Shown: piece by piece, positions 3,267 to 47,088 of the stretch
How positions within the stretch are numbered: the first letter of the stretch is position 1
Layout: every line of letters starts with the position of its first letter
Program-made: the position numbers and the translations under genes
Assembly: GCA_016209735.1 (NCBI GenBank)
Contig: JACQVN010000009.1
Span: 30,381-94,380, forward strand
Direction of reading: 5' to 3'
Source: Candidatus Methylomirabilota bacterium
Lineage (GTDB): Bacteria; Methylomirabilota; Methylomirabilia; Methylomirabilales; 2-02-FULL-66-22
DNA: 64,000 nucleotides
Notes under the pieces: model-generated
The model's input: the letters and a program-made list of their open reading frames with translations, nothing else
What the model was told of the DNA's origin: nothing
Databases searched by the model: none

Positions 3267-3290
3267 GGGCGGCCCTGTGTGGCCGCCCGG
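3263..3290 (+). repeat. GTAG-REP hairpin (GTAGGGGCGGCC-N6-GGCCGCCC), copy 1
   Basis: GTAG followed by the inverted repeat GGGCGGCC/GGCCGCCC. Its TAG is the stop codon of the upstream CDS. Confidence 0.8.
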
Positions 3291-3372
3291 CACAGGGCAC
3301 AGCGCACAGGGCACAGCGCACAGGGCACAGCGCACAGGGCACAGCGCACAGGGCACGGGGCACAGCGCACGG
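3290..3372 (+). repeat. Octamer tandem array (GCACAGSG)n
   Basis: About ten consecutive GCACAGGG/GCACAGCG units read directly. Confidence 0.9.
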
Positions 3373-3377
3373 GGTTG

Positions 3378-6340: not shown

Positions 6341-6958
6341 TTGCGCGTTGGACTGTTCGGCGGCCTCCTCGTCCTGCCGTGGGTATCTTTGCTCGAATCG
6401 AGCCTTCCGGCTCTCCCACCCGCTTTCCGGCAATCGCCGGCCATCCAAACAGCCATGCAGGCGATCACCCATCTCGGCCTCGGGTGGGTGGACATCGGCC
6501 TGTTCGTAGCCCTCCTGACTGCTGGCTGGTGGCGGCGGTGGCCGGAAGGTCGCAGGATCGGCCTGTACGGCGCGCTGGCGGTGTCCGGCGCGGGGCTTCT
6601 GGATCAGCTTCTCAAACAGTTCTCCTGCCGCGCACGTCCCAACGCAGCCGAAGCCGGTCTTTTCTTCGCCAAGTTTCCGTGTGTTTTCGATGGCTATGCC
6701 TATTCCTCTTTTCCGTCCGGTCATGCGACCACGGCCTTCGCAGCAGCCGCGTTCCTGGCGCTCTGGAGGCCCCGGCTGGCGATCCCGGCCTTCCTGCTGG
6801 CCGCGCTGGTCGCCCTGTCCCGCGTCTATCTCGGCGCGCACTTCCCGTCCGACGTCCTGGCGGGGGCGCTCCTGGGGACCAGCGCGGCCATGGCGGGATG
6901 GCGGTGGGTCGAGCGGAAGGGAGGAGGGGAGCAGAGAACGTTGAACGTGGAACGTTGA
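6341..6958 (+). CDS. PAP2-family phosphatase (type 2 phosphatidic acid / undecaprenyl-diphosphate phosphatase family)
   Basis: Has the PAP2 motifs SFPSGHAT and SRVYLGAHFPSDV plus multiple TM segments. The C-terminal residues and the stop are encoded by the AACGTG repeat. Confidence 0.8.
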   Translation: MRVGLFGGLLVLPWVSLLESSLPALPPAFRQSPAIQTAMQAITHLGLGWVDIGLFVALLTAGWWRRWPEGRRIGLYGALAVSGAGLLDQLLKQFSCRARPNAAEAGLFFAKFPCVFDGYAYSSFPSGHATTAFAAAAFLALWRPRLAIPAFLLAALVALSRVYLGAHFPSDVLAGALLGTSAAMAGWRWVERKGGGEQRTLNVER

Positions 6959-7215
6959 ACGTGCGAAGGCCGCCGTACCGCCGTACCGCCGTACTGCTTT
7001 TACCATGAGCTATGAGCCATGAGCCCGGTCCAGGGAAGCAGGGAGCAGAGGGGCACGGGAGCTGGGGGAGCGGAGGGGCGAAGGAGCAGGGAGGGACGGA
7101 CCGTGGACCATGGACGATAGACCACGGACAATGGGAACGCATAGGGGCAGAGGGGCTCAGAGGAACGGATCATGGACCATAGACCATGGACCATGGATGA
7201 TGGACGATGGACCGC
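6937..7215. repeat. Composite spacer: AACGTGR units, CCGTACCG units, CATGAGC units, G-rich stretch, GGACCAT units
   Basis: Tandem units read directly. The module order matches 3516-3735. Confidence 0.8.
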
Positions 7216-7419
7216 CGGCGAACCTTTGGCCGCCCGCGGCGGTTATGCATTGAGAGGGACTGGCGAACCAGAGGCAATGCAAAACTGGCAACCGGCAGAG
7301 GAAGTGCCGACAACGGACCACTGACTGCTTAGAGGCTGTGGAAGAATCCCAGGAGCAACCAGTGGTGCGATGGCTCGCATCTGCCTGGACACGACATCGC
7401 CGTACAGCTAACCCGGGTT

Positions 7420-7583
7420 AAATCCCCCTAACCCCCCTTTACAAAAGGGGGGCGGAGGGGGGATTGCGAAAGGGGGGCGGAGGCCTGTGTGCGCCAAGCG
7501 AAGCGCCTGCCTGCCCCGCCCGCGGCGCAGGCAGATCGCACGCAGACAGGCGATGCAGACAGGCGGCAGGCAGGGGGGATTTC
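7420..7583. repeat. AATCCCCC...CCCCCTTT-N-AAAGGGGG...GGGGGATT palindrome carrying a nested CCTGCCTG/CAGGCAGG element (7484-7574)
   Basis: The right arm ...GCGGAGG / GGGGATTT is interrupted by about 90 nt. The same architecture occurs at 33535-33623. Confidence 0.75.
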
Positions 7584-7734
7584 GGGTGGTTGAGATGGTC
7601 TGAGCAACGAGCCTTTGCTTCCCACGGCTGCCGCAAGCGGTGACCGCCGGTCCAGCGATCGGTCTTGTCGTGCGGACGGGGGGAGTGGCTTTACCTGAAT
7701 CTTCCACCGCTGTCCGTTTTACCCCCCCAGATAG

Positions 7735-7939
7735 TGCAAAGATATCTTTCTACGGCGCTTTCGAGCAGTTCCACCGAGTGAACGCGTGGTGGGGCGCGAA
7801 ATTCGGGTCTCCTGCGGTCGCGCGTAACCGTCGGGGTTACCTGCTCTCGGGTTGGCCGTTGGTTGCTCCCGATCGATCTAACGGAGGTTCCCCGAGGTCT
7901 TTCACTCCTGATTTTTTGCGCGCTCAGCGCAAGAACCAG
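7735..7939 (+). mobile_element. MITE/PATE-like element, copy 4 (diverged; only the right-end hairpin is retained)
   Basis: Collinear similarity to the core of copy 1/2. Ends in TTTTTTGCGCGCTCAGCGCAAGAACCAG. Confidence 0.5.
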
Positions 7940-8010
7940 ATTTTTACATTTTGCATTCTCCGTTGTCTGTCTTTCCATAGGGCCGCATGCCATGCGGCTT
8001 GGAGGGTGAG

Positions 8011-8547: not shown

Positions 8548-8804
8548 TGCAGGCGATCACCCGGCTCGGCCTCGGCTGGGTGGACATCGGCCTGTTCGTA
8601 GCCCTCCTGACCGCTGGCTGGTGTCGGCGGTGGGCGGAAGGTCGCCGGATCGGCCTGTATGACGCGCTGGCGGTGTCGGGCGCGGGGCTTCTCGATCAGC
8701 TTCTCAAACAGCTCTCCTGCCACGCGCGTCCCAGCGCGCCCGAAGCCGGTCTCTTCCTCGCCAAGTTCCCTTGCGTCTTCGATGGCTATGCCCATTCCTC
8801 GTGA
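8544..8804 (+). pseudogene. Truncated paralogous copy of the PAP2 gene N-terminal half (lacks the catalytic motifs)
   Basis: 8547-8800 is about 90% identical at the nucleotide level to 6456-6712. The reading frame stops just before the SGH motif. Confidence 0.65.
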
Positions 8805-8847
8805 GTTGACCGCAGTGCCGGCAGAAGGGCACGGACCATGAACGACT

Positions 8848-9040
8848 GGCTCGTGGCTGATGGCTGATGGCTGATGGCTCATGGGGGACCGGTCTCTACC
8901 ATGAGCTATGAGCCATGAGCCCCATCCGGGGAAGTAGGGAGCAGGGGCGCAGGGGAGCGGAGGGTAACGGACGATGGATGGGGGACCAGGGACGATGGGC
9001 GATGGACCAGGGACGATGGACCGTGGACGTGGCAGCCTGG
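8848..9040. repeat. (GGCTGAT)n / (CATGAGC)n imperfect foldback, followed by GGACSAT-type units
   Basis: ggctgatggctgatggctgatggctcatgg ... ccatgagctatgagccatgagcc. The downstream flank parallels 7003-7215. Confidence 0.7.
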
Positions 9041-9334
9041 CACAACGGGAAACGGCTACCCTCGTGAGCCTGGCGGTAATCCTTCTCTTTTATTCTTCAG
9101 TTGATCCCACCGCCGCGGCGTTTGCGGTTGAACGCCCAGCCCCGCTGTGATAAGAAATGGACAGCTCCGCGAGCGACGAGGAATACGCCGAGGAGGGGCG
9201 GCCACTGCCACCGGACGTCTGAACCTTGGTCGATCATGCCAACCATGCGAAAGGTTGCCGCCATTCTTCAACAGGCCGGTATCGATGAAGAGGTATTTAG
9301 AAATCTGACTCGCCAGGAGGCTGGTGAAAAGCAT

Positions 9335-9470
9335 CCGCTCACCCTTCGACGGGCTCAGGGTGAACGGGTTCGGCTCTGACCAGGTCGAGGTGAGCGGGCC
9401 CCGACGGGCTCACCCTTCGATCCCGCCTGGGCGGGACTCAGGGTGAGCGGGTCGAGATTCGTCGCCGAGA
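9335..9470. repeat. GCTCACCCTTCGAC...CTCAGGGTGAGCGG palindromic repeat family
   Basis: Two to three copies here. The same family occurs at 11600-11915 and 17790-17860. Confidence 0.7.
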
Positions 9471-9627
9471 TCATGGCTCACCGTACCAAGCACTCTTGGT
9501 CGCAATTCCGGTGGCGTATTCTGAAGCGGAAGAGTCATGAGAGATCCGGTTTACCTCCCGCATTGTCCCTTACAGCATGGGGGGAGCAGTAACGTGACCT
9601 GTTGGCCGTTCAGACCCGTGGAACTCT

Positions 9628-11535
9628 TTGGCTGCTAAGCGCACGACCCTCATCCTGCTCGTCGTCTCGGGCACACTCTTCTTCACGCAACTGGGCGGGA
9701 CCGGCCTCTTTGACGCGGACGAGCCGGCCTACGCCCAGGCGGCGCGGGAGATGCTCGCACGCGGGGACTGGATCACGCCGACCTTCAACGGGGCCCCCCG
9801 CTTCGACAAGCCCGTCCTATTCTACTGGCTGATCATGGGAAGCTACGCGGGCTTCGGGGTGAGCGAGTTTGCCGTGCGCCTTTGGTCGGCGCTGGCCGGG
9901 ATGGCCCTGGTCCTGCTGACGGCCTGGGCGGCTCGGCGCTGGCTTCCGCCATCGGCGGACTTCTGGGCAGGCGTGGCCCTGGCCACCTGCTTTCTCACCG
10001 CGCTCCTGGCGCGGGCCGCGGTGACGGACATGCTCCTTGCCCTCTGCGTCACGGCAGCCATCCTGGCGGGAGTCGCGGCCCTGGAGGTGCCAGACCGCGC
10101 AGAGCGCATGGCGCACAGGGCACAGGGCACAGGGCATGGCGCACAGGGCATGGCGCACGGCGCAGAGCGCACGGCTTACGACGCACAGGGCACAGTGCTC
10201 GACGCACAGGGCACAGCGCTCGGCGCACAGCGCACGGCGCACGGTGCACAGCGCTCGGCGCGCGGCGCTGGAAGCTGGGCTCTCTTCGCCTGGGCCGCCA
10301 TGGCGTTGGCCGTCCTGGTGAAGGGCCCCATCGGTCTTGTGATCCCCGCGATCACCTTCGGCCTCTCCCTGCCGGCAACCCGGGAGGTCCGCTTCGGCCT
10401 CCGGCGGCTCGTCCCCTGGCAGGGTCTGTTGCTCTTCCTGTGTCTCACCTTGCCCTGGTACCTTCTGGTCCTCCGGGCCAACGGCTGGGCCTTCGTCGAG
10501 GGTTTCGTCATCAAGCACCATTTCACCAGGTACACGGGGGTGGTCTCCAGCCACGCGGGGCCGTTCTGGTTCTACCTTCCCGTGCTCCTGATCGGCTTCT
10601 TTCCGTGGAGCGGGTACCTGCCGTCGGCCGGCTGGCGGGCCTGGCAGATCCTGCGGCGGCGGAGGGCCGAGCGGCATGGAGATCGGTTGATCGTTGTCTG
10701 CGCCTGCTGGGCGGCGGCGGTGTTCGTCTTCTTCTCGCTGGCCGGGACCAAGCTTCCGAGCTACCTGTTCCCCGCCTTCCCCGCCCTCGCCCTGCTGGTT
10801 GCGGGGCTCGGAATTTCAAATGAAAAATGCAAAATGAAAAACCGGCCAACGGAACAGACGGTTGCCCGGTTTTCCATTCTCAATTTTTCGTTTTCCATTG
10901 ACCAGCCGCGCATCGACGCGCGCCTGGTTCGCCTGGCGCCGTGGCTCATCGGCGGCGTCGGCGCGGCGCTGGCCATCGGCTTCGCCCTGCTTCCGTGGAT
11001 CCTGGAATTGGCGCGACCGGCCGCCCGGGGGATCCTGGATGGAGTCGAGGCGCCCACCGCCCTGGCCTTCGGGCTGGCGGGGCTTCTGGGTGTGGGCACG
11101 ACTACAGGCCTTTGTGCGTCGGGCTGGCGGCGCCCGTCCATCCTGGCAGCCATGATGGTCGGAGTGATTCTGGCGGCCGCGCTGCTGGCGGCGCCCAAGG
11201 CGCATGCCATCTTGCAGGGTGCGCTCAGGGAGTTTAGCGACGATGCTCGCCGCCTGGTGCCGCCGGACGGCACGGTGGTCGCGTATGGACTGAATGCCCC
11301 AAGCATAGTATTCTACGCGGAACGCCGGGTTCTCCCGTTGGGGCCCGGCACCCCGGACGGTCTCGATCGGATCCAGCGCCTGCTCGCCGAAGGCCGGCCC
11401 ATCGTGGTCATCTCCCGCAGCGCGCACGCCCCGATCCTGGATCGCGTTCCCGGGCTGATTCGCGGGAAAGCCCGTAGCGGGTTCGCGATATATTGGCCTC
11501 GGGCGGCTAGTCAGATTTCCGCTGCCCCACGGTAA
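9628..11535 (+). CDS. GT39/ArnT-like (PMT_2) membrane glycosyltransferase with two in-frame repeat insertions
   Basis: N-terminal LFDADEPAYAQAAREM...GDWITPTFNG.PRFDKPVLFYWL is characteristic of ArnT/PMT-family enzymes, and the protein has many TM segments. At 635 aa it is about 85 aa longer than expected, matching the two inserts. Confidence 0.8.
   Translation: MAAKRTTLILLVVSGTLFFTQLGGTGLFDADEPAYAQAAREMLARGDWITPTFNGAPRFDKPVLFYWLIMGSYAGFGVSEFAVRLWSALAGMALVLLTAWAARRWLPPSADFWAGVALATCFLTALLARAAVTDMLLALCVTAAILAGVAALEVPDRAERMAHRAQGTGHGAQGMAHGAERTAYDAQGTVLDAQGTALGAQRTAHGAQRSARGAGSWALFAWAAMALAVLVKGPIGLVIPAITFGLSLPATREVRFGLRRLVPWQGLLLFLCLTLPWYLLVLRANGWAFVEGFVIKHHFTRYTGVVSSHAGPFWFYLPVLLIGFFPWSGYLPSAGWRAWQILRRRRAERHGDRLIVVCACWAAAVFVFFSLAGTKLPSYLFPAFPALALLVAGLGISNEKCKMKNRPTEQTVARFSILNFSFSIDQPRIDARLVRLAPWLIGGVGAALAIGFALLPWILELARPAARGILDGVEAPTALAFGLAGLLGVGTTTGLCASGWRRPSILAAMMVGVILAAALLAAPKAHAILQGALREFSDDARRLVPPDGTVVAYGLNAPSIVFYAERRVLPLGPGTPDGLDRIQRLLAEGRPIVVISRSAHAPILDRVPGLIRGKARSGFAIYWPRAASQISAAPR
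10096..10265 (+). repeat. (GCACAGSG)n-type array inside the ArnT-like CDS, in frame
   Basis: Encodes AHRAQGTGHGAQGMAHGAERTAYDAQGTVLDAQGTALGAQRTAHGAQRSARG. The units are the same as in the intergenic arrays at 3290-3372 and 34444-34650. Confidence 0.85.
10812..10900 (+). repeat. AT-rich AAATGCAAAA-type hairpin inside the ArnT-like CDS, in frame
   Basis: aaatgaaaaatgcaaaatgaaaaaccgg ... ccggttttccattctcaatttttcgttttccatt. Same family as 36141-36230 and 38596-38688. Confidence 0.85.
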
Positions 11536-34422: not shown

Positions 34423-34531
34423 GGATTTGCGATTGCCGATTGGGGCACAGCGCAAAGCGCACGGAGCACAGCGCACAGCGCGCGGGGCACAGAGCACAGG
34501 GCAGCGATTACGGGGCAGCGAGCAGCTGGCA

Positions 34532-34562
34532 GGTGTAGGGGCGGCCCTGTGTGGCCGCCCGA
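34532..34562 (+). repeat. GTAG-REP hairpin, copy 6
   Basis: GGTGTAGGGGCGGCCCTGTGTGGCCGCCCGA. Confidence 0.8.
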
Positions 34563-34949
34563 CACCGGGCGCGGGGGACGGGGCAGCGGTTAGCTGGCAG
34601 CGGGTAGCGGGCACAGCGCACGGGGCACGGCGCACAGCGCACAGGGCATAGGGTAGCTGGCAGAAGTCAGGGGTCAGTAGTCAGCGGGCAGCGGGCGGTG
34701 GAGCGGGGGGAACGGACCATGGACCATGGATAGCAGGGCGCGTTGAACGTGGAACGTGGAACGTTGAACGTTTAACGTGCGAAGCAGGCCGTACCGTTCT
34801 TATCATGAGTGGGCGGGCATGAAGCCCACCCCTACGCAACCACAACCGATCACGGCCCACGGGAGTCGTCGTAGGGGAGGAGTGTATCCCCTCCCGACGG
34901 GTTGCGCGTTCATGGCGTAGGGATGTGGGTGGAAGCCGGCAGCGGGCCA

Positions 34950-46984: not shown

Positions 46985-47069
46985 ACCAAGGACCAAGGAC
47001 CAAGGACCAAGGACCAAGAACAGGGGCACCTTCGGGTCCGTCTCCATTGGGATTTGGTCATTGGTCATT
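46985..47069. repeat. (CAAGGAC)n and (TTGGTCA)n heptamers after the rpoD stop, forming an imperfect foldback
   Basis: caaggaccaaggaccaaggaccaaggaccaag ... gatttggtcattggtcattg. Confidence 0.7.
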
Positions 47070-47088
47070 GAGAATTCGCACAGCGATT

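Follow-up and report, generated by a model that had tools for sequence, protein, structure and literature searches.

An in-frame heptamer repeat array in the gene of an ArnT-like membrane glycosyltransferase from Methylomirabilota

A 64,000-nucleotide (nt) stretch of DNA from a Candidatus Methylomirabilota bacterium (assembly GCA_016209735.1, contig JACQVN010000009.1, positions 30,381 to 94,380 of the forward strand; hereafter the window) carries the gene of an ArnT-like membrane glycosyltransferase in which an array of 24 degenerate heptamers lies in frame between two transmembrane (TM) helices. The array is probably a tolerated, in-frame expansion that grew in situ from a dispersed heptamer repeat, within a permissive loop of a working enzyme. 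Slippage as the mechanism of growth, neutrality of the encoded peptide and translation of the array are what we infer from the comparisons given below. The features on which the argument turns are as follows.

9628 to 11535, + strand: ArnT-like GT-C (GT39/GT83-type) membrane glycosyltransferase of 635 amino acids (aa) with a TTG start, from the open reading frame (ORF), Pfam, phmmer, AlphaFold2 (AF2) and Foldseek
10021 to 10086, + strand: TM4, aa 132-153, beginning just past D134 (D158 of ArnT, periplasmic loop 2), from the AF2 helix and the alignment to 5ezm
10099 to 10266, + strand: degenerate heptamer array of 24 units GCAC[AG]G[GC], from Tandem Repeats Finder (TRF), the register and the translation
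10264 to 10323, + strand: TM5, approximately aa 213-232, ending at K232 of the VKGP motif (K203 of ArnT, periplasmic loop 3), from AF2

Repeat unit and reading frame of the array

The array was called by TRF at 10097-10268 with a period of 7 (23.6 copies) and with a period of 21 (8.2 copies, score 155). Read from the in-frame codon at 10099, the units run GCAGAGC GCATGGC GCACAGG (three times) GCATGGC GCACAGG GCATGGC GCACGGC and onward to GCGCGGC, and 23 of the 24 begin with GC. In the assembled sequence the 24 heptamers amount to 168 nt, which equals 56 codons or eight times 21 nt. The original prediction had described an octamer unit, GCACAGSG; this was ruled out because the register is 7, the supposed octamer being the heptamer GCACRGS together with the first G of the next unit. 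Its further statements about the tract were borne out. The array stands at the predicted place and in frame within ORF 9628-11535, where its translation, AERMAHRAQGTGHGAQGMAHGAERTAYDAQGTVLDAQGTALGAQRTAHGAQRSARG, is the quoted peptide and lies between two predicted TM helices as approximately eight copies of A-H-G-A-Q-G-T. Each unit does shift the frame, since 7 is no multiple of 3, and a set of three units spans 21 nt and seven residues. The unit is also shared with intergenic arrays at 3289-3374 and 34445-34653, which had been assigned to the same family.

Lag-7 identity over the 168-nt array was 0.70, compared with 0.265 ± 0.039 in 49,793 coding windows of the same genome, which places the array more than 11 standard deviations (sd) above the mean of coding windows; only four genes reached a lag-7 identity of 0.65 genome-wide. 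Identity within the array at lags of 7, 14, 21 and 28 nt was 0.65, 0.67, 0.73 and 0.65, respectively. The array is now decayed, and slippage should be slow because the longest perfect run is three units.

In a perfect heptamer array, all three frames of a strand encode the same cyclic heptapeptide, because 7 and 3 are coprime and each frame passes through seven codon phases. GCACAGG is translated as A-Q-G-T-G-H-R and its complement as P-V-P-C-A-L-C, and because no stop codon occurs in any phase of either strand, six frames are open at the array. The heptapeptide is independent of the frame and therefore a gene needs only the right orientation and a unit number divisible by three. This yields a simple rule for whether a gene can accept a heptamer array, which depends on orientation, a stop-free unit and that divisibility. 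When one or two units were added or removed in simulation, stops arose at aa 229-401; such alleles would be null, with the enzyme cut before its catalytic half.

Known phase-variation switches use perfect tracts. The array could nevertheless be regarded as a contingency locus, in which slippage by one unit switches an envelope glycosyltransferase off and on in the manner of NeuO of Escherichia coli K1. The heptamer unit, not divisible by three, lies inside coding sequence, a change of one or two units leads to the stops at aa 229-401, the enzyme belongs to a surface-modifying class typical of phase-variable genes, and NeuO follows exactly this arithmetic (PMC13001214). The tract is, however, degenerate where a near-perfect one would be expected (lag-7 identity 0.65-0.71, at most three identical units in a row), the same repeat families occur in housekeeping genes (HisF, PrmC and E2) in which switching would harm, and all three lineages examined carry the array in frame. 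A switch at this gene was judged very unlikely.

Deviations from the unit consensus fell on codon positions 1, 2 and 3 in the numbers 15, 9 and 9 (p=0.34), and deviations from a looser consensus in the numbers 4, 8 and 3 (p=0.25), so that no third-position excess was found over the 24 units with either version. Because such an excess is missing, there is no sign of peptide conservation: only the frame appears to be constrained, and nothing suggests that the amino acid sequence is conserved. The selection on total length that had been read from the open frame stands insofar as the frame must be kept and the gene is intact, but it is merely the ordinary survivorship filter against frameshifts. 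Selection on the array peptide itself was not seen in these counts.

The host enzyme and the loop that carries the array

The host protein matched PMT (PF02366, 1.9e-10, 41.2 bits against a cut-off of 22.7) and PMT_2 (PF13231, 3e-9, 37.7 bits against a cut-off of 26.1) above the Pfam gathering cut-offs. Comparison with ArnT of Cupriavidus metallidurans (5ezm) using phmmer gave an E value of 6e-41, with an alignment interrupted exactly at the insert: query residues 7-155 correspond to chain residues 34-181, and 213-396 to 187-364. The AF2 model (predicted local distance difference test, pLDDT, 78; predicted template modelling score, pTM, 0.80) had ArnT (5f15/5ezm) as its best structural match in Foldseek (E 4e-19, template modelling score 0.65/0.75), in agreement with the GT39/ArnT-like assignment first made from the sequence. 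Membership in GT-C is seen in the fold, in the acidic residue of the first periplasmic loop and in the D158-K203-type pair (D31/E32, D134 and K232). The score against the ArnT equivalog model NCBIfam NF009784 was 179.2 bits, which misses the cut-off of 567, and no arn operon lies near the gene, whose neighbours encode a PAP2 phosphatase, a hypothetical protein, a polyprenyl synthetase and LepA; on the related contig L001 the order of neighbouring genes is identical. By its sequence, the transferase is classed as ArnT-like and not as ArnT proper. Homologues numbered 1015, of which the nearest are named NC10/Methylomirabilales.

In an alignment of 18 sequences, more than 150 invariant columns flank the insert on both sides, and K232, G233 and P234 of the VKGP motif are invariant. 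ArnT residues were mapped through the 5ezm alignment, in which chain numbering equals UniProt numbering plus 3, as follows.

Window D31/E32: ArnT D55/E56
Window K61: ArnT K85
Window D134: ArnT D158
Window K232: ArnT K203
Window R301: ArnT R270
Window Y379: ArnT Y345

All ArnT ligand and catalytic residues that were checked thus have counterparts in the window protein. The roles of R270 and Y345 are those described in the ArnT structure paper. The roles of D55/E56, K85, D158 and K203 were taken as given in PMC7801869.

In 5ezm, D158 belongs to periplasmic loop 2 (EL2), immediately before TM4, and K203 to periplasmic loop 3 (EL3), immediately after TM5 (PMC7801869). Because D134 (ArnT D158) precedes TM4 and K232 (ArnT K203) ends TM5, both on the periplasmic side, the insert (approximately aa 157-214) is modelled as the cytoplasmic connection between TM4 and TM5, across the membrane from the periplasmic active site and far from it. 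The two TM helices between which the array had been said to be translated are therefore TM4 and TM5, and the topology check proposed at the time gives a cytoplasmic host loop. The composition of the insert (6 Arg, 4 His, 2 Glu and 2 Asp) agrees with the positive-inside rule. AF2 assigned the insert a pLDDT of 52-69 and drew a helix over residues 186-232, in which pLDDT climbs to 87-95 from residue 211. A periplasmic location of the insert was also considered and was ruled out because residues 63-76 form the juxtamembrane helix JM2 and because of where D158 and K203 lie (PMC7801869).

An assembly artefact, in which a repeat was mis-assembled into the gene, or a dead gene in decay would offer a different account of the insert. 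The source genome is a 1.69-Mb bin of 62 contigs that is 69% complete, and short-read assemblies are error-prone at repeats. Set against this, L001, assembled independently from another sample, shows this repeat family at an identical codon position, the units have diverged sufficiently to provide unique words, the frame is kept across 168 nt, and 420 downstream codons retain invariant residues. An artefact or dead gene is consequently regarded as extremely improbable. A pseudogene in which other motifs were lost, which the original prediction had named as grounds for abandoning it, was specifically ruled out by the intact motifs (counterparts of D55/E56, K85, D158, K203, R270 and Y345 are all kept), by the downstream invariant residues and by the recovered ArnT fold.

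The gene call in the public collection, P0001 (594 aa), begins 41 codons downstream of the TTG at 9628. This start would delete TM1 and the invariant DADEP catalytic loop (window 9628-9750), and the TTG agrees with the orthologue alignment. For annotation, it matters that such inserts break homology matches in two, and here the start codon was also misplaced by the gene caller.

Orthologues, a second repeat and the origin of the array

The number of residues between the anchors AAVTDMLL and VLVKGP is 34-37 in 93 of 104 homologues, 40-54 in ten and 91 in the window protein; comparison with orthologues, as had been suggested, thus finds base loop length in most of them and the insert missing. 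At the corresponding site, contig L001 (source of P0003, 67% identity, independent assembly) has approximately nine units of this family (TCGCACG GCGCACA GCGCACG GCGCACA ..., translated as SHGAQRTAHSAGGSAESARG). Contig L002 (source of P0002, 72% identity) has only GSAHAGRN, and its DNA resembles the vestige of approximately 4-5 units. The array keeps the reading frame in each of the three lineages examined (the window, L001 and L002). Because P0002 and P0003 are closer to each other (451 of 559 aligned positions) than either is to the window protein, the simplest history would place an array in the common ancestor of the three lineages, with later expansion in the window and contraction in L002. 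The graded series of approximately 4-5, 9 and 24 units offers a tractable example of loop growth by microsatellite expansion.

The TM4-TM5 loop acts as a general sink for inserts. The orthologue on L016 (G018:C46) has a different, small, perfect hairpin, CCTCTCCCCCAC CAG TGGGGGAGAGG, in frame in the same loop, and the orthologues on L008 and L006 have short unrelated inserts there.

The gene also contains a second in-frame repeat.

10818 to 10893, + strand: AT-richer hairpin with AAATGAA/AAATGCA heptamer arms and the peptide ISNEKCKMKNRPTEQTVARFSILNFSFSI, in the cytoplasmic TM10-TM11 loop

Its inverted repeat of 33 nt is 82% complementary, and its fold was matched by none of 200 shuffles (z -3.76). 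Residues 398-425 of the element (aa 396-434) had a pLDDT below 50 and were modelled as disordered. Throughout the genus the element keeps its outer arms, CAAATGAAAA / TTTTCAATTG (translated ISNEK...FSI), and between them orthologues have hairpins of very different size and inner units. The inner arms are AAATGAA in the window and AACCGAC (read TTDNR / SVVG) in most other lineages; the element of L001 is AACCGAC-armed and approximately 200 nt long (L001:7097-7238). Among the sites of L008, L009, L011 and L016, which were compared too, that of L016 has arms of merely AATGGAAAA/TTTTCCATT and almost no inner part. The peptide signature of the element was present in approximately 40-50% of 112 homologues, and the element looks as if it had grown from the hairpin centre at a single ancient site. 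A repeat has been taken up by each of two cytoplasmic loops in the same glycosyltransferase, in one case a 56-residue direct heptamer array and in the other a hairpin.

The heptamer array has no inverted partner, and 26 of 200 shuffles folded as well (z -1.26), which rules out a hairpin or foldback nature for it. It might still have arrived as an arm or fragment of a mobile hairpin-type element with tandem-heptamer arms, similar to a Rickettsia palindromic element (RPE) or a miniature inverted-repeat transposable element (MITE), by in-frame insertion and not by growth in situ. The true heptamer-armed hairpin in another cytoplasmic loop of the same gene speaks for such an origin, as do orthologues such as that of L016 with unrelated small hairpins in the same TM4-TM5 loop. 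Against it stand the missing inverted partner and the fold no better than shuffles, the graded unit numbers at one site, which fit expansion and contraction, and the lack of any target-site duplication or terminal repeats seen at the array, so that a mobile origin is considered unlikely.

It is also quite improbable that the insert is a functional module under selection, for example a spacer, a cytoplasmic tether rich in His and Arg, or an extension of the TM5 helix for binding a partner or a metal. The insert was kept in frame long enough for its units to decay by approximately 30%, part of it is modelled by AF2 as a helix that runs on into TM5, reading orientation is uniform across genes, and NeuO activity has been reported to rise with repeat number, all of which would suit a module. 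Yet 89% of homologues have no insert and its length varies 5-fold among the three nearest lineages, third-position substitutions are not in excess, pLDDT over the insert is only 52-69, and the orientation bias is present outside genes too.

Tolerated expansion in situ would account for these observations in the following way. A short GCACRGS tract was probably at the site in the ancestor of the three related lineages and may then have been lengthened and shortened by replication slippage or unequal exchange. Only length changes in multiples of 3 nt would have survived, because a change of one or two units ends the protein ahead of the catalytic half of the enzyme. The array would be translated into a polar, mildly basic, low-complexity cytoplasmic loop opposite the periplasmic active site, since GCACAGG is free of stops in any phase and gives the same heptapeptide in all frames. 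The peptide would drift neutrally, and the tract would since have decayed. Under this explanation, the gene is a measure of how much non-coding repeat DNA a working polytopic membrane enzyme can tolerate.

Several points weigh against such an expansion. Translation of the insert is something that we infer, and AQGTGHGAQGMAHGAER is an example of the predicted peptides that would show it. Lag-21 identity is greater than lag-7 identity (0.73 and 0.65), which hints at growth in 21-nt steps by a difference of less than 2 sd. In genes, each family is read in one orientation (GCACAGG as AQGTGHR in three genes and GCGCCGA as APSAERR in four), and this uniformity could reflect peptide-level selection, although it is confounded by the intergenic strand bias. 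Because units lack a one-to-one match between lineages (several registers give 70-81% identity), the array may instead have been gained twice, independently. Exact flank searches of metagenome and genome collections returned no strain-level comparator for the array.

Two candidate signatures were rejected in the course of this weighing. The 21-nt super-period is weak in the transferase array and is not shared by the other in-gene arrays of the genome, which rules it out as a general signature of such arrays. Orientation bias was ruled out as proof of peptide-level selection since it is confounded, intergenic arrays being biased likewise (47 v 18).

Heptamer repeats in the genome and comparison with known systems

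Genes were mapped from ORFs by a gene caller trained on a GC1>GC2 criterion. The commonest TRF period in the genome was 7, followed by 8, and at least 49 different heptamer units were present besides octamers. The 160 heptamer arrays comprised 115 in intergenic DNA, 24 at gene boundaries, 11 at gene edges or in weak ORFs, and ten deep in strong genes. Array density per kb was approximately 0.35 in non-coding and 0.007 in coding DNA, and the census inside and outside coding sequences that had been proposed alongside the original prediction thus resulted in a depletion of approximately 47-fold inside genes. One of the ten deep arrays (C4) was dropped, as it lies upstream of the likely true start. 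Six real genes have in-gene heptamer arrays, with Pfam domains flanking or spanning the array in each: those of the ArnT-like transferase, PrmC, HisF and the following three.

G000 C3:290-1690, - strand: 2-oxoacid dehydrogenase E2, arrays in both inter-domain linkers
G000 C36:49496-52096, - strand: CopA-type P-type ATPase, array in the N-domain region
G000 C61:11955-13655, - strand: histidine kinase, array inside HATPase_c

The kinase and E2 arrays belong to the GCACAGG family, like that of the transferase, and are translated as TAHGAQG / RAQGT. Apparent in-gene arrays in C17, C27, C3:9563, C53 and C54 were rejected as false, since the called ORFs are antisense. Strict GCRCRGS loci numbered 11 in the genome, of which nine are intergenic. 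Intergenic arrays of this kind in the window are as follows.

3289 to 3374, + strand: (GGCACAG)12 array with a dominant super-period of 14, from TRF (period 14, 95% matches) and the strict-unit census
34445 to 34653, + strand: GCACAGC / GGGCACA arrays, from TRF, the sequence and the census

Where an intergenic array lies between co-directional genes, the form of the unit that comes first in the alphabet (mostly the A-richer one) was on the sense strand in 47 cases and on the opposite strand in 18. This bias points to a transcription- or replication-linked asymmetry in the origin or persistence of arrays. It is unlikely that NC10 has an active strand-biased process which makes and extends heptamer arrays, supplying genes steadily with new peptides for loops and linkers and possibly acting as a slow on/off or tuning switch at envelope enzymes such as the ArnT-like transferase; if true, the array would count as an evolvable module and not as junk. 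Heptamer repeats are dense in the host phylum, and the literature search found no paper describing such repeats in NC10.

Other repeats were observed in passing. The hypothetical gene that precedes the transferase gene is flanked by spacers of approximately 0.8-1 kb (window 6958-7987 and 8804-9628) that are dense with arrays of heptamers and octamers (GAACGTT, CCGCCGTA, GGACCAT, TGGCTGA and others), and the corresponding spacers of L001 measure 8-50 nt. TTGGTCA and ACCAAGG arrays are located at window 47054-47070 and 46985-47018; we take TTGGTCA to be the unit of cyanobacterial STRR2 (short tandemly repeated repetitive sequence), here in a non-cyanobacterial genome of 66% G+C. A heptosyltransferase-like gene has a GGTTCCC array (C4:11410-11455 of G000, translated as LEPETLNLEPGTGNL) immediately before its probable true start, and an ORF caller that chose the first start codon would translate this array in error.

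The host protein resembles ArnT (PDB 5ezm/5f15) in its 13-TM GT-C fold with a C-terminal periplasmic domain and in its equivalents of the first-loop Asp/Glu, K85, the D158-K203 pair, R270 and Y345. It differs from ArnT in its identity of 22%, in an equivalog score far below the cut-off and in the TM4-TM5 loop, which has approximately 6 residues in ArnT and approximately 62 in the host protein.

The closest arithmetic is that of NeuO, the O-acetyltransferase of E. coli K1 phage CUS-3, in which a poly-psi heptanucleotide variable number of tandem repeats gives full-length protein only at unit numbers divisible by 3; its tract is a perfect AAGACTC repeat in which three units encode one heptapeptide, and activity is reported to increase with repeat number (PMC13001214). 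Both cases share a 7-nt tandem unit inside coding sequence and the same multiple-of-three rule. The NeuO tract is perfect, sits at the 5' end and is a proven switch; strains have anywhere from 3 to 53 units, and most of the alleles are out of frame. The array described here, by contrast, has decayed, lies inside the gene within a membrane loop, belongs to one of many dispersed families and keeps the frame in every lineage seen.

RPEs are dispersed repeats that are read in frame inside conserved genes (PMC10969869). Like them, the array belongs to a normally non-coding dispersed family, found at many non-coding sites, that is read through at a permissive site without destroying a conserved gene, and most orthologues are without the insert. 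RPEs are palindromes of approximately 150 bp with a conserved peptide, whereas the array is a one-armed direct repeat with no hairpin and a drifting peptide; palindromic architecture is seen only in the second element, at 10818-10893.

Over-represented heptameric simple sequence repeats are known as cyanobacterial STRR, Nostoc GGGGA(C/T)T and Xanthomonas GGGAATC (PMC4692102). As in those genomes, tandem 7-nt units form many dispersed arrays here that are mostly intergenic, depleted in coding DNA and variable in length between relatives, and some of them are intragenic. In those genomes one or a few G-rich units with G-quadruplex potential predominate, whereas the NC10 genome has its at least 49 units plus octamers, and the case described here differs further in being a long array translated inside a polytopic membrane enzyme. 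The lineage-specific array adds one more case to a phenomenon that has known analogues, and is somewhat unusual in that it is one-armed, long and situated in a membrane protein.

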